Source of the DNA: a virus
Taxonomy: Duplodnaviria > Caudoviricetes
Virus record (IMG/VR): IMGVR_UViG_3300044850_000077
Span: 1-33,392 of that record
Length of the DNA: 33,392 nucleotides
Strand: one strand, 5' to 3'
Under the pieces are notes generated by a model. It did not search any database. It was given only the letters and a program-made list of their open reading frames with translations, and had not been told where the DNA came from. Positions 1 through 30,959 of this stretch are shown here, in pieces (position 1 is the stretch's first letter; every line of letters begins with the position of its first letter). A program made the translations under genes and the position numbers.

Positions 1-379
1 TTCGCCCCCCTCCGCCGAAAAGTTTTTTACCCCCCTTTGATCCATCTCTATATATTTTATAGTTGTGACATTGAACACATAACGGTTGCTCATTGGACTC
101 GTTGTCGCTCCCGCCCTGTCGAAGCGGCATGACATGGTCCCGAACGACCATCGGTATCAATTGACCAGGGTGTCGCCCAAACGGATCACAGCAAAACGGA
201 CTTCGCTTCCGCAAAGCCTCACGCTTTCGGACATGCTCGGCACCGTATCCCCTCTTTGACGCGGACGGACGATTATCCTGCGGACGCACGCGCACGGGTC
301 CGCACAACATGCACCAGCCGCCAACTGGAACAAGTACCCACGGATGTATCTTGCATGGACGAGACTGCTTCCTAGCCAT
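1..379 (-). CDS. HNH endonuclease (terminase-associated, HK97 gp74-like); runs off the window edge
   Basis: Not in the ORF track. Manual translation from ATG 379 (SD GGAGA upstream): MARKQSRPCKIH...RPSASKRGYG...PFCCDP...DHVMPLRQGGSDNESNEQPLCVQCHNYK. If the ends join, it stops at TAG 33342-33340, just before terS. Confidence 0.9.
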   Translation of the reverse strand, partial: MARKQSRPCKIHPWVLVPVGGWCMLCGPVRVRPQDNRPSASKRGYGAEHVRKREALRKRSPFCCDPFGRHPGQLIPMVVRDHVMPLRQGGSDNESNEQPLCVQCHNYKIYRDGSKGGKKLFGGGGR

Positions 380-393
380 CTATCATCTCCTTC

Positions 394-471
394 AAAACAT
401 GATGCGCCCAATATCTTTGAGATATTGGGCGCATCAGTCCAACACATTTTCCCGAACTGGTCAGGATTGCA
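394..471 (-). ncRNA. Structured late leader A (5' hairpin, antiterminator, 17-bp terminator hairpin) upstream of HNH/terS/terL
   Basis: Perfect 17-bp inverted repeat 400-416/420-436 followed by TGTTTT on the - strand. Same architecture as 30974-31056. Confidence 0.6.
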
Positions 472-476
472 AATAA

Positions 477-482
477 ATTATA
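477..482 (-). promoter_or_regulatory. Perfect -10 box (TATAAT) of a putative late promoter; no clear -35
   Basis: + strand attata at 477-482 lies about 6 nt upstream of leader A. Confidence 0.5.
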
Positions 483-563
483 CTATTGATCGATTCGCGT
501 TCTTCTCTTCGCTAGACTTCGCCACTAGCCACAAATAACATAGACTTTGATAAATACTGTAGT

Positions 564-761
564 TTACCGGAGTGATTGTTGTCCTGGTATAAAGCGACGA
601 TACACTTCTACGTCAATCGCGACAAGTCTTTCTTCAATATCACTAACTTGAAATTTCTGAACATTTATCTCAACGCGTAAACCAGCCTCGTTAAGCTTTT
701 TCAGAACATCATTCAATCCTTTGATCTTTTCTTCAAGCTCTTTTTCAAGTTGTTCGTCCAT
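564..761 (-). CDS. Hypothetical protein (65 aa)
   Basis: Strong SD AAGGAGAG before ATG; AT-rich segment. Confidence 0.7.
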   Translation of the reverse strand: MDEQLEKELEEKIKGLNDVLKKLNEAGLRVEINVQKFQVSDIEERLVAIDVEVYRRFIPGQQSLR

Positions 762-780
762 GTCACTCTCCTTTTGGCAA

Positions 781-972
781 TTATAACGCCAACGGTTTAC
801 GTTGAACGCTTTTTAGGCGTTTCACCGCATTGCGAGACACAATCTCACGCTGACCATTCTCAAACTCGATAAGGCAAGAGTTCATCCGACCACGAGCCAC
901 GACACGACAGGCACGCTTATATAGCGTTTGCCTTTTCTCATTGTTTTTCCAAGTGTAATAATATTCAAACAT
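781..972 (-). CDS. Small basic hypothetical protein, putative integron gene-cassette ORF
   Basis: MFEYYYTWKNNEKRQ...RMNSCLIEFENGQREIVSRNAVKR. ATG at 972 lies immediately after the GTTCGGCGTTT core, and the C-terminus reads through the attC-like remnant. Confidence 0.75.
   Translation of the reverse strand: MFEYYYTWKNNEKRQTLYKRACRVVARGRMNSCLIEFENGQREIVSRNAVKRLKSVQRKPLAL
786..822 (-). other. Degenerate attC-like site
   Basis: - strand AAACGCCTAA-AAAGC-GTTCAAC-GTAAACC-GTTGGCGT reads as R'' lacking its terminal C, a 5-nt spacer, an L''-like box, a spacer and an R'-like GTTGGCG. The central region is missing. Confidence 0.55.
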
Positions 973-997
973 AAACGCCGAACTCATGATTCAACAG
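973..997 (-). other. attI-like recombination site overlapping the 3' end of intI
   Basis: - strand GTTGAAT-CATGA-G|TTCGGCGTTT. The core begins at the first base after the intI stop codon and is near-complementary to the R''-like arm at 812-822. Confidence 0.55.
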
Positions 998-1958
998 CAA
1001 CGCGCTGTTTAATAACTGGCTTGTCAAGCGGCGAAACCACACCGCTTCCCTTCATCGTCACGTGCGTATAGATCATCGTGGTTTTTATATCCTTATGCCC
1101 CAACAAGTCCTGGATCGTGCGAAGGTCGTATCCATCTTCCAGCAACTTCGTCGCGAACGAATGGCGGAACGTATGCGGGGTTACAGGCTTATCGATGCCA
1201 GCCTTGCGCGCCGCATGTTTGATCGCCGCCTGTACACTCGTCTCGTATACATGATGTCGGCGAACATGACCACTGCGCGGGTCCGTCGAAAACTTGTTCG
1301 CAGGAAAGACATATTGCCAGATCCATTCAAACGGCGCGTTCGGATATTTTCGATCCAAAGCAAAAGGCAACTCAACTTCTCCGCAACCATTGGCAAGGTC
1401 TTCCGTGTGCTGTGCCTGGACTTTTGCCAGATGCAACAACAGTGCAGGCGCCACCGACTCAGGCAGGCAGGTCACACGGTCGCGGTTGGATTTGGTGTCT
1501 CGCAAGGTCAATGTGCGGTTATGGAAATCAACATCCTTGACGCGCAGTCGCAGGCACTCCATCAAACGCAACCCGCCGCCATACATCAACTGACCCATAA
1601 TCCTATACTGACCGCTCAATTGTTCAAGCGTCCGCATGGCTTCATCGTGCGTCAACACAACTGGCAGGTAGGTTAATCTTTTAGCTCGCACAATATCCAG
1701 GCTTCCCATTTCGACGCCGTAGAGCTTGTACAAAAACAGCAAAGCCGCCAATGCCTGATTCTGCGTTGTGGCGCTCACCTGCTTCTCCACAGCAAGATGG
1801 GTGAGAAAACGCCTTACGCCATCGCTCCCTGCTTCACGCGGATGAACAGGTCTGACAAACCGAACATATTGACGAATCCAATGCAGGTACGTCTTCTCTG
1901 TGCGATAGGCATAATGCCGCGTCCGTAACGCATCCCGCACCGTCTCGAAAAATTTCAT
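984..1958 (-). CDS. intI: Integron integrase (tyrosine recombinase with IntI-specific insertion)
   Basis: N-terminus [21 protein letters not shown] and [16 protein letters not shown]. Catalytic motifs [35 protein letters not shown]. IntI-specific insert [26 protein letters not shown]...[11 protein letters not shown]. Start taken as ATG 1958 (ATGA overlap). Confidence 0.93.
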
Positions 1959-2302
1959 TCCATCTTCTCCTTGCCATAGCGAGCCATCAAAGCCAGGAAC
2001 GCCGCCTTGCCAGTTTCCCAGCGCTCCGTCCTCTCGCAACCAGGATAGCGGCAACGGATGGAACGCACATCCCCGATCATCATGCAATCGATCTTCGGAT
2101 TGATATTGATCGGCGGGATTCTGAACGCTTCAACCGACACCTCCCAACGAGCCAGGGCGGTCACTTGTCTGCCCTCATCGCTGACATAACACAGGTGTCC
2201 GATGATGTGGCTTTTGGGATATTTATAAAGGTCTTCATGCTTTACGCATTGTCCTGTGCATAAAAAATAGCGGGCGACAACAGCCTGGGTACTTTCCGTC
2301 AT
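1955..2302 (-). CDS. Hypothetical Cys/His-containing protein (115 aa)
   Basis: Start MTESTQ at 2302, ATGA-coupled on both sides; CTGQCVKH and CRYPGC motifs. Confidence 0.7.
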
Positions 2303-2517
2303 GGCATGGTCTCCAATTTCATCGCTCGGCTCGTTCGGATCGCGTCCGCCCGTCGAAAACATTCCAGCGCATTCAAAAAATAACCGCGCTCGAAATACAA
2401 CACCGCCAGGGCTTCCCATTGAAGCGGATCGTTCCATCGCAGGCAGGCTTCAAATTGGGCTTGCAGATCGAACTCCCGCAAACAGATCGGGCGCATGGTC
2501 TGGATGTGATTATTCAC
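2299..2517 (-). CDS. Hypothetical protein with a single TPR-like helix pair
   Basis: WEALAVLYFERGYFLNALECFRRA pattern; overlaps both neighbours by 4 nt. Confidence 0.65.
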   Translation of the reverse strand: MNNHIQTMRPICLREFDLQAQFEACLRWNDPLQWEALAVLYFERGYFLNALECFRRADAIRTSRAMKLETMP

Positions 2518-3401
2518 GCGCGTCTCCTCAACAACGGACGCATATCCGAATCGTTATTCACGATGATCGGCTCGCCGCTCACAGCATTTCGTCCATCCCG
2601 CAAACGTGACCAGATGCGCGGCTCGAGACCAGCAGGGTCTTCGTTCATCGCGAATAGGGTGAACGATATGCCATCCAATCCATCCCGCCATCGTCGGTCG
2701 ATGATGTTCCTCAACTGCTCAAGCCTCCAGTCGGTGATCTTGATCGCCTGCAATTCGTCAATGGCAAGCATACGAATATATTTGACGCGTTCCAGCCTTG
2801 CGTACATCGTTTCGCTCTTCACGCTTCCGTCGCTGGCAAAGGCGTCCTGCAACCAGTTCAGCAGGTCATACGACGGCAGGTACAGCGCGGGAATGCCTCG
2901 ATCCAGAAATTCATTGACCGTTGCGATCAACGCCGCGCTCTTGGCATTCCCGTTCGTGCCCCAGATCGTCAACATCGCCGCCTTGCAGTCCAGCATCTCC
3001 TGGCACGCCTGCACCATCCTCGCCGTGTCCGTCCTGTTTCGGGTTGCGATTCCAGACAGTCGCAGTTTCGCTTCTGACTCCGTGAAATTACATACGCCCT
3101 GCAACTCGACCATCTGTCGGTCTATCCGCTCGCTCACACACGCTTCGCACGGAACGGAAAACATGTTCACCTGTCCATCGGTAACGACCAGCTCAATATC
3201 GTCCCCGTCATAACTGCGGATGTGGACCAGCTCGCCTGGGCGCGCATAACGCCAGCCTTCACCCAGGCATTGTGGACATTCCCGAGTTGATCTCTTCGGC
3301 AACGCGGCGGTCGGCTTCTGTGTAATCGCTGGAAGTTCCCGCTTGCGGACGTCTGGGTTGCTTTGCGCTCTTTCGATTGCTTGTGCCATTGTCATTGCCA
3401 T
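2514..3401 (-). CDS. DnaC/IstB-like AAA+ helicase loader
   Basis: CPQC...PCEAC Zn motif, Walker A-like WGTNGNAKS, Walker B LAIDEL, IIDRRW, RIWSRL; follows the replication initiator. Confidence 0.85.
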   Translation of the reverse strand: MAMTMAQAIERAQSNPDVRKRELPAITQKPTAALPKRSTRECPQCLGEGWRYARPGELVHIRSYDGDDIELVVTDGQVNMFSVPCEACVSERIDRQMVELQGVCNFTESEAKLRLSGIATRNRTDTARMVQACQEMLDCKAAMLTIWGTNGNAKSAALIATVNEFLDRGIPALYLPSYDLLNWLQDAFASDGSVKSETMYARLERVKYIRMLAIDELQAIKITDWRLEQLRNIIDRRWRDGLDGISFTLFAMNEDPAGLEPRIWSRLRDGRNAVSGEPIIVNNDSDMRPLLRRRA

Positions 3402-4056
3402 GTCTATTCTCCGATCTGATCAGGGATGGGCGTTTCTTTTCCGCCGCGCTGTTTTTCAAAATGCCTCGCACGTAACGCCAGTCGCGCTTGTTCGCAGAGA
3501 CCGCGATCTTGATTGCATCCTCGACCCACTCCATCGGATAGGTCTTGCAATCGTCCTCGATAAAATCGGCGATCATGGGCGTCAATGCCCCGAATTCGCG
3601 GCTGTAAATTTCAAAAAAATGCGGCGCGCTTACTACAACTACTAGATTCTGGTTTGTTTGTTTGGGTGACACAATTGTGTCACCCGATTCCGTGTCACCC
3701 GATTCCGTGTCACCCCTGTTAGCGTGACGGGGTGACAGGCTGTCACCCCCCAGTCGAAAACCAAGTTTCACCGATCCGTCATCGTTCTCGACCAGCGGAA
3801 ACGAATATTGGTTTGTGCCGCGTGGTCCCTTCCCGCTTGGGATCAATAAACCCATGCCTTCAAGCATCCTCAGGTATCGTTGTACGGTTCTGGCTGATAA
3901 TCCCGACTCCGCCGCCACCGTGTCAACTGCGGGATGCGCATGTGTGCCATCCTGCCAGGCGTGATCGGCATAGATGACGGCGATCAACTTCGCATCGGAT
4001 GTGTAAATCTCCGTGATCGGGAGGCGTAACACCAACCCGACGATCAGCCCGCTCAA
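3259..4056 (-). CDS. Phage replication initiator (N-terminal HTH, DnaD-like C-terminal domain)
   Basis: HPAVDTVAAESGLSARTVQRYLRMLE (HTH); FEIYSREFGALTPMIADFI...WVEDAIKIA...WRYVRGILKN (DnaD-like); internal iterons. Confidence 0.85.
   Translation of the reverse strand: MSGLIVGLVLRLPITEIYTSDAKLIAVIYADHAWQDGTHAHPAVDTVAAESGLSARTVQRYLRMLEGMGLLIPSGKGPRGTNQYSFPLVENDDGSVKLGFRLGGDSLSPRHANRGDTESGDTESGDTIVSPKQTNQNLVVVVSAPHFFEIYSREFGALTPMIADFIEDDCKTYPMEWVEDAIKIAVSANKRDWRYVRGILKNSAAEKKRPSLIRSENRHGNDNGTSNRKSAKQPRRPQAGTSSDYTEADRRVAEEINSGMSTMPG
3664..3749. repeat. Iteron cluster, putative replication origin
   Basis: TGTCACCC occurs six times in both orientations: 22-bp palindrome 3664-3685, 15-bp direct repeats 3677-3691/3692-3706, partial copy 3707-3715, inverted repeat 3729-3738/3740-3749. 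Confidence 0.8.
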
Positions 4057-4883
4057 TTTTCCACCTCGATCATTTCTGGAATTTCAACCTGAAACCCGCT
4101 CAAAGCGTCGTTCACCGTGCTGACAGAACATTGCAAAATTTGTGCGATCCCGTTCTGCGAAAGCGCGGGGAACGTCCGCCTGATCCCTCGAATGCGGTCA
4201 CGCAAAGAGTCGTCCTTGCCGAACAGCCACCGAATGACATCCCCCACCGCAAAATACCGCTGTTCGGCGTCATTCGCCCGCTGTTCGCTCAACCGAATAG
4301 ACTGTTCGAGAGACCGAATGGTGACATTCGCCTCCCGCAGGTCGGCTTTCGCCCTGGCGAATGCTGGATCGTCCTCGTATTCGCCCTCCTGCATCGTCGA
4401 GAGCGCCCTTGCGAACACGAACGAAACCAGTGGTAAAGCCATACCGAATACCACCTGGTAGAAACGAACCGACCACGGCGCGGTCAGAAACACCTGCAAG
4501 TTGCGGTTCGTAAACTCAACCACATGGGTGTAATTGGCAATCGCAGAGACGATCATCGCAGTCAAAAGGGTGGCCGCATACACATTCAGCCACCGATACG
4601 AAAAACGCCTGCCAGCCATGCCGTCCGCTTTATAACGCTTCGGCATCTCCATCCAATGCTGGTTCAGGCGATGCGTCACGATGCCGATCGTGATCTCGAA
4701 CACGCCTGCCAGCAACCACGCCAGCGGTGAAGCCTGAACGCCCAGAAAAGACCATTGCCCGCCGTCCACATCCTGAAATTGACCGATCGTCCACGCCGCC
4801 TGTGGGAACAAAACGAACAAAAAGGCGACATATACACCCCAGAATAAATTCGTGCTATTGATCTGCTTTTTCATGGTCTCCAT
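4053..4883 (-). CDS. Polytopic membrane protein with coiled coil and C-terminal HTH (SpdB2/DUF2637-like architecture)
   Basis: About four hydrophobic segments, coiled coil ARAKADLREANVTIRSLEQSIR..., HTH PALSQNGIAQILQCSVSTVNDAL. Start at 4883 or 4874. Confidence 0.65.
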   Translation of the reverse strand: METMKKQINSTNLFWGVYVAFLFVLFPQAAWTIGQFQDVDGGQWSFLGVQASPLAWLLAGVFEITIGIVTHRLNQHWMEMPKRYKADGMAGRRFSYRWLNVYAATLLTAMIVSAIANYTHVVEFTNRNLQVFLTAPWSVRFYQVVFGMALPLVSFVFARALSTMQEGEYEDDPAFARAKADLREANVTIRSLEQSIRLSEQRANDAEQRYFAVGDVIRWLFGKDDSLRDRIRGIRRTFPALSQNGIAQILQCSVSTVNDALSGFQVEIPEMIEVEN

Positions 4884-8676: not shown

Positions 8677-8778
8677 ATGTCCTATGGGTTATTTTTTATT
8701 GCCTATAGGTCATTATAGGCAATTACAATTATTTGTCAAGAGGCAATTTTGTGATCCCCAAAGGTCATTGCCTAGGAT
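8677..8778. promoter_or_regulatory. Lysis/lysogeny switch: divergent promoters and three operator-like boxes
   Basis: Leftward TTGACA(8739-8734)-16-TATAAT(8717-8712). Possible rightward TTGTGA(8749-8754)-18-TAGGAT(8773-8778). ATGACC-N4-GGTCAT-like boxes at 8677-8692, 8698-8713 and 8753-8768. Confidence 0.75.
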
Positions 8779-8796: not shown

Positions 8797-9144
8797 ATGG
8801 AAAAAATAGATTTTGCTGATTGGCTTCGCGCAGAGATTGAAGAACGTGGATGGTCTCAATCTGACCTGGCTCGCACGAGCAAAATATCGCCAACACAAAT
8901 TGCTCGAATCTTGTCGAGAGAACGAAATGCAGGTAATGAAGCGATTGTTGCAATCGCTCATGCCTTCAAACTTCCCCCGGAGCAGGTATATCGTGCGGCA
9001 GGCATTCTCCCGCCTGCGCCTGAGATCAACGAGATCATCGAGCAAATTCTGCACGAGACGCAAGACATGCCTGAAATGGACCAGCAGGAAATCCTTGCCT
9101 TCATCCGCATGAAGAACAATCTTCGCGCCAGCCGTAAAAAATAA
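8797..9144 (+). CDS. XRE-family CI-like repressor (no S24 peptidase domain)
   Basis: FADWLRAEIEERGWSQSDLARTSKISPTQIARILSRER HTH. Confidence 0.88.
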   Translation: MEKIDFADWLRAEIEERGWSQSDLARTSKISPTQIARILSRERNAGNEAIVAIAHAFKLPPEQVYRAAGILPPAPEINEIIEQILHETQDMPEMDQQEILAFIRMKNNLRASRKK

Positions 9145-10178: not shown

Positions 10179-10214
10179 CCGTGAGGTCGAGAGTTCGAAT
10201 CTCTCCGCCCCGAC
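10179..10214 (+). other. attP core: 3' half of a tRNA-Pro gene
   Basis: CCGTG-AGGTC-GAGAG-TTCGAAT-CTCTC-CGCCCCG-AC gives the anticodon-stem 3' strand, variable loop, perfect T arm and a Pro-type acceptor strand. No 5' half; lies next to xis/int. Confidence 0.85.
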
Positions 10215-10347: not shown

Positions 10348-10761
10348 ATGAGAAAACCCCTACTCAAACATCGGCATATTATCAAACTGGCGCGCCTGCT
10401 CGACATGCTCTATAAGCCAGGCGAAATTGCCGAAGAGCTGGGCGTTACTGTGGACACAGTCTATCGGTCGTATCTGCCCGCAGGACTCCCACACGCACGC
10501 GGGGCGAAAGGAGAAATCTGGATTCACGGTCCTGCCTTTGTCGCCTGGGCACGCGAAACCATATCTGGAAAACGAAACAAACGCGCAGGCTTGCCCGATG
10601 ACCAGGCATGGTGCCTCAAATGCGCCCGTCCAGTGGCGCTCATCTCCCCGAAAATAAGATCAGTCAATCGCTATATTGAACTCATGCAGTCACAGTGTCC
10701 CATCTGTGGGCGGACCGTCAATCGCGCCCGCGCCCGTCGGCGAGAACGGGAGCAGAAATGA
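10348..10761 (+). CDS. Excisionase-like HTH protein with C-terminal Zn ribbon
   Basis: YKPGEIAEELGVTVDTVYRSYLPAGLP HTH; WCLKC...CPICG; coupled to the integrase. Confidence 0.65.
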   Translation: MRKPLLKHRHIIKLARLLDMLYKPGEIAEELGVTVDTVYRSYLPAGLPHARGAKGEIWIHGPAFVAWARETISGKRNKRAGLPDDQAWCLKCARPVALISPKIRSVNRYIELMQSQCPICGRTVNRARARRREREQK

Positions 10762-11735
10762 TCCACCGCCAGAACTACCTCGATATCCGTGCCTACCTGA
10801 ATCATGCCGGGCGAGTTCGGCAAAACGATCCCAAAACCGTCTCCCGTTACTGGAACGCCTTGCGTCATCTCCTCGTATGGGCAGACGAATATCCGCTCAT
10901 CAAAGCCCGTTCCATTGATCCAACCTTTCCCGCCTATCTGTGCGACAGGCTGACTCCCGCCTCCATTGCCAAGACCCTGATGACTGCCCGCCAGTTTTTT
11001 GCTTTTGCAGGCTCAGAGTGGTCGCGCCGCTATAAACCGATTTCCGACTCATGGATCGAATCCCTTGTTCCGCCGCGTCACGCCCATCCGCTTGCCCGCT
11101 TGCGTGTTCGTGAATTCTGGACTCTGGAAAATGTCCGCAAAGTCGCATCCATTCCCACCGAGACGTTGCGTGAAGAACGCGGCAAGGTTGCTGTCTGTAT
11201 CTTGTTCCTGAGCGGAATGCGCGCCGATGCCCTGGCATCCCTGCCTCTCTCATGTATGGATCTGGATCGTAACGCTGTCTATCAACTCCCCGAACGCGGC
11301 GTCCGCACAAAAAACCACAAAGCCGCCGTCACCTATCTGCTCCAGGTGCAGGACATACTCGCTGTCGTTCGCCATTGGGATCGAAAACTTCGTTCTGCCG
11401 TTCATTCTCAAAATGGGTTGGGGGATCGTTACCTGTGGTATTCCCCTCTCACCTCCGATGGCATGGATTTTCATCTCATCGAAAACGCCTTTGCCGAACG
11501 TCATCATGTCATTGCCGAAGATGTCAAATTGATTTGCGCCAGAGCCTCCGTGCCCTATCTTTCCCCGCACAAACTTCGTCACGGGCACGCCGTCTACGCA
11601 CTCAAACGCGCTTCCAATATTGCCCAACTCAAGGCGGTCTCGCAAAACCTCATGCACGAATCGCTCGTCACCACAGATCAGATTTACGGCAGGTTGATCA
11701 ACGACGACGTGCAGGAGATCATCCTGCACCTATGA
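10758..11735 (+). CDS. int: Phage tyrosine integrase
   Basis: LSGMRADAL, RTKNHK, PHKLRHGH, LMHES, QIYG catalytic set; start ATG 10758 (ATGA overlap); adjacent to attP. Confidence 0.9.
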   Translation: MIHRQNYLDIRAYLNHAGRVRQNDPKTVSRYWNALRHLLVWADEYPLIKARSIDPTFPAYLCDRLTPASIAKTLMTARQFFAFAGSEWSRRYKPISDSWIESLVPPRHAHPLARLRVREFWTLENVRKVASIPTETLREERGKVAVCILFLSGMRADALASLPLSCMDLDRNAVYQLPERGVRTKNHKAAVTYLLQVQDILAVVRHWDRKLRSAVHSQNGLGDRYLWYSPLTSDGMDFHLIENAFAERHHVIAEDVKLICARASVPYLSPHKLRHGHAVYALKRASNIAQLKAVSQNLMHESLVTTDQIYGRLINDDVQEIILHL

Positions 11736-19745: not shown

Positions 19746-20059
19746 GCAAGATTTCCTTCCACAAAAAAGGCAGGTTCAGGATGGCTGTGCCCTTTCCATG
19801 CGCCCAGTTCGTAATACGCCTGCGCCTTCCACTCGCCCAGGTTGTCGATGTCGCCGTCCAGTACGGTATAAGAGATCGAGCCCTGTGCGAGATTCTCCGC
19901 GGACGCGGTGAATTCCTTGCCATTGGTGCTCAGGGTTGATTTTATTTTTATCTTCAGGTTGCTCGCGCCCGTCAGGTCACGCACCGCGCCATCTGGGTCT
20001 TTTACGTTCACAACCAGCTTGAATCCATAATTGCCAAGTTGTACGATATCCAAAATCAT
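19742..20059 (-). CDS. BppU N-terminal-like small structural protein
   Basis: DPDGAVRDLTGA...GSISYTVLDGDIDNLGEWKAQA. Confidence 0.6.
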   Translation of the reverse strand: MILDIVQLGNYGFKLVVNVKDPDGAVRDLTGASNLKIKIKSTLSTNGKEFTASAENLAQGSISYTVLDGDIDNLGEWKAQAYYELGAWKGHSHPEPAFFVEGNLA

Positions 20060-21465
20060 GGAGCATCCTCCGCGTCTACGCTCACCAAAGCGACAGACCT
20101 TGAATTGATGGACAATGGATCGTTCGAGATCGAATTGATCCCGAAATCAATATACGCGACCGAGTCCACCAGGATAATCCGCGTCACCGCTCCGCTGAAC
20201 ACGATTGCCTGCGCCGCATCCACCTCCGACGCCTGACCAACGCCCCTGGACTTCAATCGCGCAAAGGCTTGCGATAGATCAGATTCATTGACCTGCACCA
20301 GGGTCGCTTGCTTGGCAGGCGAGAATGCCTGCGCCAGGTCGGCTTCATTGACCTGCAATAACGCCCTGATCCTTTGCGGACTAATGGATTGCACACTATC
20401 GAATTCGACCACCTGCGCCACGGAAACGCGCTTCGTGCGGAAGAACTGTTGCGCAATGTCCGTTTCTTCGACCTGCTGGACAAGTATTCCTGTGACGCGT
20501 GTGATGCTTTGCGCCGAATCCATCTCCGACGCCTGACTGGTAAGTTTCGCCTTCAATTTTGAAAGCGCCTGCGCCTCATCAGATTCGGATGCCTGACCTG
20601 CGACTCTTGCCTTCTGTCTCGCAATTGCCTGCGCTGTATCGGTTTCGCTGGTTTGCGCCATTGCGTAGCGTCGTTGCGCTGTGATGCCTTGCGCCGAATC
20701 CGCCTCCGAAACCTGACCTGCGACTCTTGCCTTCTGTCTCGCAATTGCCTGCGCTGTATCGGTTTCGCTGGTTTGCGCCAATGCGTAGCGTCTTTGTGCA
20801 GTGATGCCTTGCGCCGAATCCGCCTCCGAAACCTGACCTGCGACTCTTGCTTTCTGTCTCGCAAACGCCTGCGCTGAATCGGTCTCACTGGTTTGCGCCA
20901 TTGCATAGCGTCGTTGCGCTGTGATGCCTTGTGCCGCATCCGTCTCTGTAACCTGGTTCACTGGCACAATCGTCTGGTTGCTTCCAGGTGTGATCGTCTG
21001 CGCTGAATCCGTCTCGCTTGCTTGCGCCATTGCATAGCGTCGTTGTGCAGTGATCCCTTGCGCCGAATCCGTCTCCGAAGCCTGACCTGCGACTCTTGCC
21101 TTCTGTCCAACAAACGCCTGCGCTGAATCCGTCTCGCTTGCTTGCGCCATTGCATAGCGTCGTTGTGCAGTGATCCCTTGCGCCTCATCAGACTCGGATG
21201 CCTGTCCCGCGACTCTTGCCTTCTGTACAACAAACGCCTGCGCTGAATCCGTCTCGCTCGGTTGTGCAACCGCATAGCGTCGTTGCGCTGTGATGCTTTG
21301 CGCCGAATCCGCCTCGCTGACCTGCCCGAGCGTGCGAATCTTTACGCGATTGATCGCCTGCGATTCGTCGGTTTCACTCGTCTGACCAACCGCGTACGCC
21401 CCAAGCGCGCCATACACACGTATGCGAATGACCTTCGCGGGAAAACCACGCCCAAGCCTCGCCAT
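20056..21465 (-). CDS. 20-residue tandem-repeat fibrous protein
   Basis: About 20 units of Q[VAT]SE[TAS]D[SET]AQ.I.. Confidence 0.85.
   Translation of the reverse strand: MARLGRGFPAKVIRIRVYGALGAYAVGQTSETDESQAINRVKIRTLGQVSEADSAQSITAQRRYAVAQPSETDSAQAFVVQKARVAGQASESDEAQGITAQRRYAMAQASETDSAQAFVGQKARVAGQASETDSAQGITAQRRYAMAQASETDSAQTITPGSNQTIVPVNQVTETDAAQGITAQRRYAMAQTSETDSAQAFARQKARVAGQVSEADSAQGITAQRRYALAQTSETDTAQAIARQKARVAGQVSEADSAQGITAQRRYAMAQTSETDTAQAIARQKARVAGQASESDEAQALSKLKAKLTSQASEMDSAQSITRVTGILVQQVEETDIAQQFFRTKRVSVAQVVEFDSVQSISPQRIRALLQVNEADLAQAFSPAKQATLVQVNESDLSQAFARLKSRGVGQASEVDAAQAIVFSGAVTRIILVDSVAYIDFGINSISNDPLSINSRSVALVSVDAEDAP
20200..21390 (-). repeat. 60-bp tandem repeat with alternating A/B (120-bp) period
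   Basis: 21001-21060 is identical to 21121-21180; 20641-20700 is nearly identical to 20761-20820. Confidence 0.9.
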
Positions 21466-26357: not shown

Positions 26358-27144
26358 TGGTTTCTCCTTGTATTTGGTTGATACGTTCGCGCAAGCGCTC
26401 ATATTTGCGTTCGCGCTCGACATTCTCCGCCTCAGGTTCGGATTCCTGTCTGGTCAGGTCTCTCAAAGCGGGCGGGACGTTTAGATAGGATTGCAGGGCA
26501 TTGACGTAAGCAATGTTCGTGATCGGACTGCGGGGCGCCTGCTGGCCGCCGCTGTATATCTCATCGGCAAAACCAAGTTCCACCGCTTCACGCGCAGACA
26601 TCCATGTCTCGGATGTCATCATGCGCGCAATGCGTTCCTCGGTCAGTCCGGTCTTCGCAGAATAGGCTGGCACAATACCGTCCTTGATCGCCCGCAGGTC
26701 ATCGCGCAATTTTCCAAGCGTCTCGATATCGAGTTGCGCCAGGAAGACCACGACCGCAGGATCATGGATCATCATGTAAGCCGCGTCAGTGATCTGCACA
26801 CGCCTGCCGGAAATGGCAACGATCACTGCCGCGGAAGCCGCCATGCCCTCGATACGCACCGTGATCTCGCCGGGGTAATCGGTCATGATCGCGCGCATCT
26901 TCGCGGCGGCGATCACATCCCCGCCGGGTGAATTCAACTTCATCAATACGGGACCACCCCTGCCGTTCTGATAAAGTTGCTCTTTGAATATCTTGGGCGT
27001 GATTTCATCCTCGAACCACGAATATTGTGAGATGACGCCGTCGATTTCCATCTCAGGCTGGTCCGTGTCTATATTGACCCAGCGCCAGAATGGATCATGG
27101 GGCAGGTCATCTCCATCAAAACAGCGAATGGGTGGATTAGGCAT
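26350..27144 (-). CDS. ClpP-type head maturation protease
   Basis: LNSPGGDV, EGMAASAA, MMIHDP, ETWMSAREAVELGFAD. Confidence 0.92.
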   Translation of the reverse strand: MPNPPIRCFDGDDLPHDPFWRWVNIDTDQPEMEIDGVISQYSWFEDEITPKIFKEQLYQNGRGGPVLMKLNSPGGDVIAAAKMRAIMTDYPGEITVRIEGMAASAAVIVAISGRRVQITDAAYMMIHDPAVVVFLAQLDIETLGKLRDDLRAIKDGIVPAYSAKTGLTEERIARMMTSETWMSAREAVELGFADEIYSGGQQAPRSPITNIAYVNALQSYLNVPPALRDLTRQESEPEAENVERERKYERLRERINQIQGETNG

Positions 27145-28372
27145 CCTGTAATTCTCCTTGCTTCGTTTCCTGGACTCGTTGCAGGTTTGACATCATCCAA
27201 AATTCACCGCCGCCGTCATATGGGCTTTGTTCGTCCAGGGCACGCGCCTCGTTCGGGGACATTTGCCCGGTTTGAATCTTGATCGAATTCGTTTCCGCAC
27301 GCGCCTTCGCATCCATGCGCAACAGGGAGGCACGGTTGAATTTGAAATAGGTGCTCGATTGTTCCTCGAGTGTCAGCCATTTGATACGCGCCCCCTCCTC
27401 CCACGGCACCAGGTACGCATCCAGCGTGCCCTGTAAATACTCGCCATATTTTTGCTCGTTCGAGTTGTATGCCTCTTTTCCACGGTTGAGCATATGCTCA
27501 GACAAGCCCAGGAAGTTGCAAATATCCCGGTCAGTCGCGTTTATGCCTTCCAGGAATTCGGCATCCTTCGGGTCGATCTGGATCGGCTCGAACTTGGTAA
27601 TGGCGTTATCGAGAACCGCCAGCCCGTATGCGTTTTGCGAGCCTGTCATCGCCTTGGAATACTCCTCGCGAATCTTGTCCCTGCCTTCAGAACTCAACTT
27701 TGCGTTGACCTGTACATAGGCAGAGGCAGTCAAGCCGCTTTTATATAGCTTGGACTCTGTCCTGTAGGCGCTAAGTTGCCGCCCGATCGACTCGCGCGCA
27801 AACCGCAGGACTCCGCGCCCCATCACGCCGCTTTCGTCCGGGTTGATTAACAGATGCAGGATTTCGACATGCGGGATAAAACGCTTTTCGCCGTTGGAAA
27901 ATGTATGCTGATACCACAATGCGCCAGTCTCTTTTTCAAAAACGGGCACAGTTCGTCCCGCAGGCAGGATGAGTAACTGGGGCGGAAAGATCGGAGGCTT
28001 CCAGATGAACGCATTTCCGTGCGTGATCTGCCAGTCTATGATTTGTTTCTTGAACTGGAAGGGCGTCCAGCCCCATTCGTTCGGCGAAACTTGAAGCAGA
28101 TAAGCCAGGTTGCGTAAAAGGGAATCGGCTTCGATCTGCGAAACATTGCCATCATCACGCCTGAATTGCTGGAATGGCATCTTGGCAACATCATCAGAAA
28201 TGATATTCTTGCCGCGATAGAACGTCGCCACAGACATGGCATTCTCTATTGTGACCCGCTCCCCGGATTGAGTGTCATTGCCCGAGCGCGACGGATAATC
28301 GGCGCGCGGGCTGGCTTGCGAATCCGCAACGACCTTATTATTGCTGTTGAACAGGTTGGATATTAGCGCCAT
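27137..28372 (-). CDS. HK97-family portal protein
   Basis: IISDDVAKMPF, PNEWGWTPFQFK, HGNAF, DAEFLE, MSPNEARA. Confidence 0.93.
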   Translation of the reverse strand: MALISNLFNSNNKVVADSQASPRADYPSRSGNDTQSGERVTIENAMSVATFYRGKNIISDDVAKMPFQQFRRDDGNVSQIEADSLLRNLAYLLQVSPNEWGWTPFQFKKQIIDWQITHGNAFIWKPPIFPPQLLILPAGRTVPVFEKETGALWYQHTFSNGEKRFIPHVEILHLLINPDESGVMGRGVLRFARESIGRQLSAYRTESKLYKSGLTASAYVQVNAKLSSEGRDKIREEYSKAMTGSQNAYGLAVLDNAITKFEPIQIDPKDAEFLEGINATDRDICNFLGLSEHMLNRGKEAYNSNEQKYGEYLQGTLDAYLVPWEEGARIKWLTLEEQSSTYFKFNRASLLRMDAKARAETNSIKIQTGQMSPNEARALDEQSPYDGGGEFWMMSNLQRVQETKQGELQDA

Positions 28373-28523
28373 TCTTTGCCAGCTTTCTTCCGATCAACAA
28401 ACTCCAAACGATCATCTCTGCGCCTGCCACGATCCACGCAAACGCAACGGACATCTGTGCCACGCCCACCACAATGGATACGCAACCCAGGAAAAAAAGG
28501 AGATCATCCACATAAGATTTCAA
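28338..28523 (-). CDS. Small two-TM protein preceding the portal
   Basis: Probable TTG start at 28523 overlapping the upstream TGA; DDLLFFLGCVSIVVGV...AWIVAG. Confidence 0.65.
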   Translation of the reverse strand: MKSYVDDLLFFLGCVSIVVGVAQMSVAFAWIVAGAEMIVWSLLIGRKLAKNGANIQPVQQQ

Positions 28524-29329
28524 CTCACCACCATCCAATCCGTCGGGATGAAATACCCCTCCGGCACAAGCGACCCGGAAATATCGAAGTCTCTCCAATC
28601 CAGCGCCACAGGCAGGTACACCAAACCCTTCGGCGTATAAACGGAAGTATCATCGCCCTTGTACACACACGTCGCCCTCTGCCACAACCACGGATACACT
28701 CGCGGGTCTCTATCCAGGTCCGCACGGCGGAACGGCAACAGCCTGCGCATCGTCACATTCCTCTTTGTCGTCTCGCCGCGCAAGCGCACATAAAACGTAT
28801 GGATCGTCTCACTCACTGCCACCATTTCCCCACCGTTCACCATCGTCCCATACCGTTTCTCGCCTTCCTCCCACCATTCCCCCTGCCCCCACATCGTCAA
28901 ACTGGTCGGGCCGCCAGACCATGACTGATACATCCATCCCATCTTCTGCTTCAGCGTCCAGCCATCCGACAAAGGCACGGTCATATCCCGGATCGGGTCC
29001 AGTTCCTCTCGCCCAAATGCGATCAACTGCGCCCTCGCGACCTTCAGCATATCCTCCCGCGTCAAACGGTTGTACTTCGTCACCGCGCTCCAATCCCCGA
29101 CCGGAGGCGTATACAACTCCACCACCTGAAACGTCCCCACAGGCTCCGCCCCCGCCGCATACCGCTTATAAACACTGCAATCCGCCTGCGCCACCATTAT
29201 CGGATCGCCCCACTCGCGCATCCGCATCAAGCGATAACCCGCAGGCGGCGCAATCTTCGGCTTTTGTACGCGCGTCACCTGCACGATGACATCGTCCAGT
29301 TTATGAGGCGCATCGAGAATGATGTTCAA
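28520..29329 (-). CDS. Hypothetical protein in the lysis region (269 aa)
   Basis: Coupled to the endolysin gene; no family recognised. Confidence 0.7.
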   Translation of the reverse strand: MNIILDAPHKLDDVIVQVTRVQKPKIAPPAGYRLMRMREWGDPIMVAQADCSVYKRYAAGAEPVGTFQVVELYTPPVGDWSAVTKYNRLTREDMLKVARAQLIAFGREELDPIRDMTVPLSDGWTLKQKMGWMYQSWSGGPTSLTMWGQGEWWEEGEKRYGTMVNGGEMVAVSETIHTFYVRLRGETTKRNVTMRRLLPFRRADLDRDPRVYPWLWQRATCVYKGDDTSVYTPKGLVYLPVALDWRDFDISGSLVPEGYFIPTDWMVVS

Positions 29330-30204
29330 TTCGGCTCCATGTGGACCACACCAGAACCGTCCGCATATCCATCACGCCTGATCGTGACCGTCACATCGAA
29401 CGGCTCCAATACAGGCGCAGGCGGAACGCCCAAACCATAAAATGAACGGAATGACTGCTCATTCCCATTGTGATTGTTAAGATCGATCGTCGCGCTCGAT
29501 ACGCCGTACAATGCGCCCATGCCGCCGCTGGTGTATTGCCAGCGCAGGAGACTCGCCTCATCCCACGGTTGCGGAATTTTCACTGCATCGGGATTGGCTG
29601 AATACCACGCCAGCCACAGGCGATGGCGCTTGAACCATTCCATACTCCCTGGCACATTCAAAGGCGCTTTGCCCGCAGAAAGCCAGTAGTAATAGCCTGT
29701 GTACAATGGCACGCGCTCATCGGGTAAACCTGTCTTCATCTGAAATTCGCTCATGAACTTATACAGATTCACCCATCCGCCATAATCGCCGTCATATCGT
29801 TCCTCGTAGTCTGCGGCATGGTCCAGTTCGCCATGATCGTTATTCAGGATGCTTGCCCATAATCTCGCCTGTGAGATCGGGTCTACGCGGCTATCATAGA
29901 AAAAATATGAACCGCGCGGCAAACCTGCGGTTTTAGCTTTCGCATAATACTCGTCGAACTTCGTGTCCTTCCACAGGTTCTGTCCTGCGCGGATGATCGT
30001 TCCCTCCGCGCCAGCCTGCTTCATGAGGGAGAAATCGGTCTCACCCTGGTAGAAAGAAACATCCGTGAGGATCACTGAACGGTCGATGGTGATGCGCGGC
30101 TTGATCTTGATCCGCGTATATGGCTTATGGAAGGCATCACGGATCAAAGCGGTCAGGTCGCCGTAGTAACCGCCCGCTTGCATCCCTGGGCTTATATCAA
30201 GCAT
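29326..30204 (-). CDS. Endolysin, GH25 muramidase
   Basis: DVSFYQG, IIRAGQ, GLPRGSYFFY, ADYEE, LWLAWY, WQYTS, IDLN. Confidence 0.9.
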   Translation of the reverse strand: MLDISPGMQAGGYYGDLTALIRDAFHKPYTRIKIKPRITIDRSVILTDVSFYQGETDFSLMKQAGAEGTIIRAGQNLWKDTKFDEYYAKAKTAGLPRGSYFFYDSRVDPISQARLWASILNNDHGELDHAADYEERYDGDYGGWVNLYKFMSEFQMKTGLPDERVPLYTGYYYWLSAGKAPLNVPGSMEWFKRHRLWLAWYSANPDAVKIPQPWDEASLLRWQYTSGGMGALYGVSSATIDLNNHNGNEQSFRSFYGLGVPPAPVLEPFDVTVTIRRDGYADGSGVVHMEPN

Positions 30205-30529
30205 TGGGTTTCCTCTTGATCAATTTCAAAAGTTTCGGGTCGCTTTCCAGGCCGATTGGGGGATTGGGAGGCGTGAGATCGTTGGAATGAAAATTCTCGA
30301 TCAACGTGTACACGTATTGCCAGAGCACGCGGTTCTTATCCTCGAACCGTTCAACCTCGTTCTTTAGTTTCAGCAGATCGTCGTTGAGGATTTGAACCTC
30401 CTTCGACAATTTGAAAAGCGTCTCCACGTCCACGGCGTTTTTCTGCGCCTTTGACAACGACCGTCCACCGTGAAACGATATCAAAGCCACGACGATGATC
30501 GCGATTGCGCTGATGATGGCTTCGTTCAT
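30197..30529 (-). CDS. Single-TM coiled-coil lysis-associated protein
   Basis: Start MNEAIISAIAIIVVALISF at 30529; coiled coil; Pro-rich C-terminus. Confidence 0.6.
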   Translation of the reverse strand: MNEAIISAIAIIVVALISFHGGRSLSKAQKNAVDVETLFKLSKEVQILNDDLLKLKNEVERFEDKNRVLWQYVYTLIENFHSNDLTPPNPPIGLESDPKLLKLIKRKPNA

Positions 30530-30536
30530 GCGCTGA

Positions 30537-30959
30537 TTAGTGACCAGGCTTTTTCGCGAGGGTGAACGCGGGGGCAATCTTCCCGAGAACGTCCGCCAGC
30601 AAAATGTTATATAAAGCCGTTGCCACGGCGAACAATTGCGCGCCAGAGGTCAATAATGCGCCGCACCACGCAAACAATCCGTTGATGAAGATCACGAAAT
30701 CGCCATCGAACGTTGGGAAATTCGGTATCACGAATCCCTGGAACAACACCGCGCACATGACCGAAAGTATCAGCAACACGCCTGAAAGGTGGAACTTGCT
30801 CACCTCTTTGCCTGTGCGCACGGCGATCAGTTTCACCGTCCACACGACCACGATCGCGATCAACGATAACAATGCCAACTGGTTATCCTGCGTCCACACA
30901 AACCCGCTTGCCACCAGCGCCAGCACGATCTTTGCCACAGTCTGCCAATCGAATTTCAT
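30537..30959 (-). CDS. Holin-like polytopic membrane protein
   Basis: Three to four hydrophobic segments, strong SD, first gene of the lysis block. Confidence 0.6.
   Translation of the reverse strand: MKFDWQTVAKIVLALVASGFVWTQDNQLALLSLIAIVVVWTVKLIAVRTGKEVSKFHLSGVLLILSVMCAVLFQGFVIPNFPTFDGDFVIFINGLFAWCGALLTSGAQLFAVATALYNILLADVLGKIAPAFTLAKKPGH

Follow-up and report, generated by a model that had tools for sequence, protein, structure and literature searches.

Integrons are usually treated as bacterial devices that are carried by phages occasionally, by accident. The accessible text of Qi et al. (2023; PMC9892861) describes a survey of 10,705 phage genomes that turned up 3 complete integrons, a single In0 and 17 CALINs, and shows that phage attC sites work with IntI1. 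The complete integrons come from Vibrio phage Va_90-11-286_p16, from Shewanella prophage M16-3 and from P1, the last with a class 1 integron, and CALINs are described in TJE1, PH101 and P12002L. According to the same text, the integrases are of host type: they stem from a subset of the host's chromosomal integron, share 95% identity with the IntI of S. oneidensis, or belong to class 1. Chromosomal integrons with an inverted integrase, co-oriented with the cassettes, are known as the Treponema type (accessible text of PMC3607928 and PMC4889954), and the inverted-integrase group is reported to be paraphyletic in the latter source.

The window analyzed here, by which we mean the whole virus record of 33,392 bp, belongs to a lineage that resembles the phage integrons in the accessible text of Qi et al. 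in that IntI, attI and attC are found in temperate phages and DNA methyltransferase cassettes occur in both. However, those are 4 cases with a host-type IntI, whereas a distinct IntI clade recurs here in 21 viral contigs. The lineage also differs from them in the coupling of intI into phage gene runs, the location of attI inside the 3' end of intI and the short, phage-type cassettes. With the Treponema-type integrons it shares an intI co-oriented with the cassettes and an attI 3' of intI. These are chromosomal, whereas in the phage attI lies partly within the coding region and no separate promoter region precedes intI. IntI4/IntIA of V. cholerae (PDB 2A3V) can be aligned over its full length with the phage IntI, including the insertion that grips the folded attC, but is part of a sedentary chromosomal super-integron, unlike the phage setting. 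The V. cholerae system is under SOS control.

In the literature searched, which mostly excluded subscription papers, no paper described an IntI lineage that resides in phages and has a cassette pool to itself, and the accessible text of PMC13366799 and PMC13323075 describes no such phage lineage. Phage-borne integrons and co-oriented integrases were already known, and a phage-resident lineage with its own cassettes would be the new part. The interest lies in the picture at the level of the lineage, of which the genome in the window is a decayed example with one cassette.

The phage genome and its integron integrase

Family scans of the window returned terminase, portal, Clp-type protease, capsid, tail, tape measure and endolysin genes, together with a tyrosine integrase, a repressor, an FtsK-like protein, DnaD- and DnaC-like replication genes and an HNH gene. 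We conclude that the 33-kb genome is that of a temperate siphophage. Going by the gene order, and by one public contig that extends 36 bases beyond position 1, the contig may be circular. The features discussed below are collected in Table 1.

Table 1. Positions, strands and supporting observations for features of the window
Feature	Position	Strand	Observation
Likely terminator before the HNH gene	400..436	-	17-bp perfect hairpin with T-tail; z -8.2
Possible cassette 2, 65-aa orphan ORF 761-564	564..792	-	after a second G/TT (793/792)
Cassette 1, 190 bp	793..982	-	83% identity to L126 cassette
Cassette-1 ORF, 63 aa, phage-type	ATG 972, stop 783-781	-	reads through attC remnant
Dead attC remnant, 32 nt	787..818	-	top match of covariance model R1
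attI, inside the last ten codons of intI	977..1016	-	conservation, synonymous constraint
attI R core GTTCGGC, crossover G983/TT	983-977	-	
attI 5-nt spacer	988-984	-	
attI L-like box GTTGAAT	995-989	-	role inferred by likeness to host attI
attI upstream box ATTAAAC	1013-1007	-	role inferred by likeness to host attI
intI, integron integrase, 324 aa	984..1958	-	TIGR02249, 2A3V match, invariant catalytic residues
Phage gene of unnamed function upstream of intI	1955..2302	-	joined by ATGA overlaps to intI on one side and to the preceding gene on the other
Replication module, DnaC-like loader and HTH/DnaD initiator	2514..4056	-	
Sigma70-type promoter, 12/12 consensus	8712..8739	-	faces leftward operon, divergent from repressor gene
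Repressor gene	8797-9144	+	repressor PHROG matches, E 6e-11
tRNA-3'-like piece, candidate attP	about 10180-10214		upstream of integrase module
Ordinary phage tyrosine integrase	10758..11735 (about)	+	family scans

The initial annotation, which was made from the sequence alone, had described a full-length IntI with the IntI-specific insertion and intact catalytic residues, present in addition to an ordinary phage integrase at 10758. Both proteins were recovered as described. The score of the putative IntI is 415 bits on TIGR02249 (cut-off 265) and 335 bits on PRK15417, the latter being under the cut-off of 435. On the XerC and XerD models it scores about 132 bits, far below cut-offs near 330, and the clustering with XerC/D that had been named as a contrary outcome is absent. 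The best match among solved structures is V. cholerae IntI4 (2A3V; residues 2-312, E 1e-82), with the IntI-specific insertion aligned across about residues 185-240. Residues R131, K156, H262, R265, H288 and Y297, which we take to be the catalytic positions, are invariant in 13 relatives. A longer gene with a TTG start at 2087 was rejected because the relatives align from 1958.

The comparison of IntI with 12 relatives gave a pN of 0.135 and a pS of 0.75, and dN/dS was 0.04-0.08 in the 5 of 12 pairs for which dS could be estimated, the other pairs being saturated. Judged by these substitution rates, the phage IntI is under strong purifying selection and is therefore old in the lineage.

Scans of IMG/VR identified 155 and 315 stretches with relatives, from each of which the best 80 were kept, and 119 database proteins are 76-84% identical to this IntI. 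A FastTree phylogeny of 256 IntIs placed it in a clade of 39 members (support 0.974), along with 21 IMG/VR contigs, 17 metagenome contigs and none of the 93 bacterial-genome rows. Genome contigs were scanned in 1/64 of the collection, for the supply of outgroups only. An IQ-TREE analysis of 62 rows gave SH-aLRT values of 90-95 for the phage clade and 95 for a separate clade of Anaerolineales. The phylogeny proposed in the initial annotation has thus resolved a distinct IntI clade; no Treponema IntI is included in these trees.

In a scan of 10 viral loci, which covered 67 of their 131 ORFs, packaging or virion genes were seen within 10 kb of intI in 6. The gene order of contig L309 is like that of the window, with a DnaC-like loader, intI, array, hairpin, HNH, terminase and portal. 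Among the 17 metagenome contigs counted in the clade, the viral nature of 16 is presumed only, and the remaining one, L162, has housekeeping neighbours and a gap of 129 nt upstream of intI. The clade is therefore not purely viral. Positions 7001-14500 of L162 represent a chromosome-like co-oriented integron with long cassettes, nested in the phage clade, and the first of these cassettes resembles a HigB-type toxin-antitoxin gene. A transfer from phage to host may possibly explain this contig.

The host of the phage is likely to be a member of the Anaerolineales, since homologues of the ordinary integrase (up to 52%) occur in 38 of 301 genomes of that order and since attC sites of the order score on the model built from phage sites, as detailed below. 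The tRNA-like candidate attP was uninformative for naming the host, with an exact match in 0 of 151 genomes and a match with two mismatches in 1 of 61. It was found in 0 of 5 non-Chloroflexota genomes, and the window contains no whole tRNA.

The attachment site and the cassettes

According to the initial annotation, attI is located at the 3' end of intI, with a GTT core right after the stop codon, a crossover at 983/982 and a co-oriented cassette-like ORF behind it. All of this withstood the comparison with relatives. The G983/TT begins at the first base after the TGA of intI (986-984), and the sequences of close relatives stay alike as far as the GTT behind the stop codon, then diverge at once. 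The majority conservation is 84% at positions -30 to -1 versus 43% at +7 to +36 (28 sequences). Synonymous differences drop from 75% in the body of intI to 7% in codons 315-324, and by this measure the attI stretch in the 3' end of the gene is under constraint at the DNA level. Paired boxes with a 5-nt spacer before the G/TT were also seen, by eye, in the attI sites of host integrons. An ATG inside attI was rejected as a general in-frame start of first cassettes, since no more than 2 of 21 loci gain a frame of at least 45 aa from it.

Once a cassette has been integrated, integron biology predicts that the core behind the crossover complements the one with which the attC of that cassette begins. 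Among 22 loci, the R'/R'' complementarity of first cassettes was perfect in 17 (83 of 88 bases), while 50,000 permutations gave 2.5 perfect loci on average and never more than 10. The 22 loci are those of the 38 in the clade that have a model match downstream, the other 16 having no such match in the available DNA; L005 and L007, which are outside the clade and showed no site fitting the pattern in the first run, were dropped. The genome in the window is not among the 22 loci because its own cores match imperfectly (GTTCGGC versus a damaged GCCTAA), and complementarity fails here. The first 250 nt after attI formed only 8 alike pairs among 34 segments, none of them like the segment of this genome. 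Since G/TT is the conserved crossover point of the whole clade, the junction in the window is not due to chance, and comparison identifies G983/TT as a historical crossover point. Thus, the presence in a phage of a true IntI with attI at its 3' end is confirmed at the level of sequence comparison.

The attC sites of the lineage were studied in an alignment of 32 sites from viral and metagenome loci. Here, 94% of the cells pair and the covariation is 0.507, as compared to 0.142 after shuffling and no more than 0.152 in slid controls, for a structure that was set by hand from the same 32 sequences, which favours it. Based on the alignment and the pair counts, intact attC sites with R'', L'', L', R' and unpaired bases are present in the clade. 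From 1 to 6 attC matches were found in 15 of the 21 viral clade members, all downstream of intI and on its strand; four of the 6 loci without a match end within about 130 nt. The arrays of related phages carry different small cassettes at attI. The variable arrays anticipated in the initial annotation hence exist, and the invariant downstream content that would have spoken against it was not observed. Of 47 phage cassettes, 5 recur in other loci, and several are DNA methyltransferase-like (one by a PHROG match, the others by eye).

The left-arm motif of attC occurs in about 190 viral stretches, including L126, L127 and L413-L560, and L126 displays 8 attC model matches with no intI within 4 kb. 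In L308 (11395-11779), attC-like complementary terminal arms enclose a whole ORF, and similar units are seen in L006, L120, L153, L157, L165, L311, L318 and L464. Such units measure about 230-470 nt in phage arrays, have the cores AAC or AAT and GTT or ATT, and resemble a gene inside the variable stem of a giant attC. The chromosomal Chloroflexia contig L245 has versions of 176 nt. In the phages L002-L004, whose IntI is 56% identical, divergence sets in at an AAC immediately 5' of intI, a canonical position of attI, about 130-140 nt upstream of the intI match; their upstream ORFs seem to point towards intI and are possibly inverted cassettes of a second phage design. In L005, L006 and L007, co-oriented arrays of this attC family are headed by a second IntI lineage, which is 42-45% identical and falls outside the clade. 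L007 has 9 such sites, and the ORF preceding intI in L006 is large-terminase-like.

Cassette 1 of the window matches a mid-array cassette of the phage contig L126, and the homology begins exactly at the G of the GTT, which provides a direct footprint of its insertion at attI. The cassette in L127 is 87% identical, and the same ORF is located behind an attC there. The cassette-like ORF may alternatively start at an in-frame ATG at 987, which overlaps the stop codon of intI, and it has homologues in 21 viral loci. The attC remnant at 818-787 scores 14.2 bits on model R1 (E 0.04), with 92 model positions missing. It lacks the C of AAC as well as the entire inner stem, and does not fold as an attC. 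The same letters are present in an independent sample from 2018. The attC of cassette 1 is damaged in all three copies (here, L126 and L127), by different lesions. A regex-and-fold scan identified no intact attC in this genome, and the covariance model finds the remnant only. As read from these matches, the array consists of one clear cassette with an internally deleted attC. With its only attC destroyed, nothing is left to shuffle in this genome. Cassette 1 is therefore predicted to be fixed in place, and attI is predicted to be still open to new insertions.

The ORF at 564-761 is a possible cassette only, not a proven one: it has no attC model match and no relative in viral contigs, and the leader motif is weak (8 of 35 first cassettes, with a background of 7%). 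Neither ORF downstream of intI belongs to a Pfam or PHROG family. Their Atlas matches are only to hypothetical, mostly viral clusters, with low recognition. No cassette-level polymorphism was seen in the contigs of four runs, contigs being prone to lose rare forms; a single joint in those runs, at 1178-1525 in X3 (side 29), probably represents another organism.

The chromosomal integrons of the Anaerolineales (L230, L383-L412 and L561-L572) provide the comparison with hosts. An IntI is present in 130 of 401 genomes of the order, with 59% as the best near-full-length match to this IntI. The attC family is common to both, the phage-built model R1 scoring up to 98.7 bits on chromosomal sites, and the chromosomal attI has paired boxes and a 5-nt spacer, like the phage attI. 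However, the host integrons are divergent in all 11 loci with an attC match (33 searched), and their integrases form a separate clade, 50-59% identical. Their attC sites are uniform, about 130 nt, and the cassette ORFs stop before the attC, whereas 37 of 47 phage cassettes, versus 1 of 28 host cassettes, have an ORF that extends over 20 nt into the attC. The median cassette length is 333 bp in phages (n=47) versus 826 bp in hosts (n=28; P 2e-8), where the phage cassettes come from 17 loci, among them two arrays with no intI close by, one array of another IntI clade and three metagenome contigs, and the host cassettes from 3 arrays. No tblastn match of the phage cassettes was found in 15 chromosomal loci. 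The cassettes look like phage genes and not like cassettes captured from a host.

Placement and expected transcription of intI

The minus-strand genes are unbroken from 8669 to 564, with intI and the two following ORFs at the end of the run. The initial annotation had coupled intI by an ATGA to its upstream gene, denied it a promoter region of its own and wired it into the early operon. The ATGA overlap is located at 1958-1955; the upstream gene has no PHROG match. There is no intergenic region upstream of intI, and a consensus-type search, which a non-consensus promoter would escape, identified no sigma70-like site on the minus strand in 1-2600, either for intI or as a dedicated cassette promoter (Pc), in agreement with the lack of a promoter region for intI. 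An exact search of the genome for one type of LexA box gave 0 matches, providing no indication of SOS control via a LexA box in an intI promoter.

Terminator-like matches between the 8739 promoter and intI are weak, at the chance level, and a hairpin similar to that before the HNH gene follows the array in L052/L309. Iteron-like repeats of 15 bp are found at 3677-3715 in the replication module. From the layout, with a promoter, an unbroken minus-strand run and a closing hairpin, we infer co-transcription from the 8739 promoter to the 436 hairpin. The gene order suggests that intI would be expressed during lytic growth.

A co-directional ORF ends at most 20 nt from the start of intI in 23 of 32 clade loci, as compared to 0 of 17 chromosomal loci. 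The genes upstream of intI in the relatives vary, and include the small terminase region, an integrase and a phrog_2045 gene; in some relatives intI is located in late or integration modules. The wiring into the early operon thus applies to this genome, where intI is at the end of the leftward operon, but is one of several placements in the lineage. Across the loci compared, intI and attI together act like a mobile unit, which is often located close to the border of early and late genes.

Probable origin and proposed activity of the phage integron

We consider it probable, at roughly 0.78, that the window contains an integron of a phage-resident lineage, in which IntI inserts and reorders phage accessory genes that are transcribed by read-through. 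The past insertion, the purifying selection and a cassette pool unlike the sampled host arrays are established by comparison. The intact IntI, in combination with the different small cassettes at attI in relatives, suggests that the enzyme likely carries out these insertions and rearrangements. One transcript would extend from the 8739 promoter to the 436 hairpin, with translational coupling, so that the cassettes would be read from the phage operon and not from a cassette promoter. Recombination of folded single-stranded attC is the mechanism of bacterial integrons, and the phage IntI would act on such sites during phage replication. Cassettes would be exchanged with co-infecting phages or prophages in the Anaerolineales host. 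In the present genome, cassette 1 would have become fixed after the deletion of its attC, with attI accepting new insertions. The capture and shuffling of cassettes proposed in the initial annotation hence agrees with the variable arrays in relatives but not with the present genome, in which the sole attC is destroyed.

A wider interpretation, to which we give distinctly less than even odds, is that phages of the Anaerolineales with domesticated integrons act as a cassette factory, in which early genes would be turned into minimal cassettes and shuffled by a phage-only, lytically expressed IntI. At the birth of a cassette, the native stop codon and the ribosome site would be replaced by attC sequence, and the ORF would for that reason read through the attC. 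The cassette-1 gene seems to exist in both states, being attC-linked here and in L126 and L127, and apparently free in 19 viral loci without obvious attC flanks, as judged by eye. Such pairs of cassette and non-cassette genes are concrete material for studying cassette birth, and if this interpretation is true, the question of how gene cassettes arise becomes directly testable.

Several other explanations were weighed against the phage-resident integron. The platform could be real while the phage IntI is silent or marginal here and in many other genomes, the cassettes being moved for the most part by the chromosomal IntI of the host in trans, or during lysogeny. The attC family common to host and phage (up to 98.7 bits), the arrays of L126 and L127 without intI within 4 kb, the many viral stretches with an attC left arm and the dead attC in this genome all fit this explanation. 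We nevertheless find it unlikely, given the strong purifying selection on the phage IntI, the DNA-level constraint on attI, the tight coupling of intI to phage genes and the many different first cassettes at the phage attI. Less probable still is a passenger fragment of a host chromosomal integron, picked up recently, as in the Vibrio and Shewanella prophages. It would match the published pattern (accessible text of PMC9892861), the chromosome-like integron of L162 lies within the clade, and the GC content of the window falls to 41% at 501-1000. This explanation is largely refuted, however, by chromosomal IntIs of at most 59% near-full-length identity in 401 genomes, by the divergent layout in 11 of 11 host loci with an attC match, and by phage cassettes that lack a tblastn match in 15 chromosomal loci and are of another size and build. 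Moreover, synonymous divergence among the phage copies is saturated, which argues for long residence in phages.

The attI could also be a second attachment site, by which IntI places the phage into host attC arrays, with cassettes gained by imprecise exit. A Vibrio prophage flanked by attC sites (accessible text of PMC9892861) and the attC family common to the hosts would agree with this, but the phage already possesses an ordinary integrase along with a tRNA-like candidate attP, its cassettes are not host-type, and no IntI of the clade is found in 401 genomes of the host order. We regard this explanation as very improbable. A chimeric assembly, in which a bacterial intI was joined to a phage contig, might be suspected from the metagenomic origin and the low-GC stretch. 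It is refuted by two public assemblies, either of which may be the source of this DNA, that cover the locus (1-3339 and 1-4200) with zero differences, and by the same layout in L309, an independent phage contig. In addition, the 2018 sample, from another study, matches exactly over 749-899, and its pieces cover 627-899, including the dead attC. The concern about a chimera raised in the initial annotation was thus not borne out.

If the preferred reading of a phage-resident integron is true, a long-resident phage IntI with a pool of short cassettes would constitute a site-specific engine for the turnover of accessory genes. The DNA methyltransferase cassettes suggest that this turnover is possibly aimed at host restriction. 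Because the attC type is common to phage and host integrons, the phage integron would also be a route for phage genes into the bacterial cassette pool.

Two features elsewhere in the genome were also observed. A gene for 469 aa on the minus strand (20059-21465) contains internal repeats with a period of 60/120 nt, and its sole PHROG match is to a family annotated as unknown. At 27137-30959, also on the minus strand, an endolysin gene (GH25) and its neighbours separate the terminase gene from the portal gene; this arrangement is unusual and is suggested in L309 as well.
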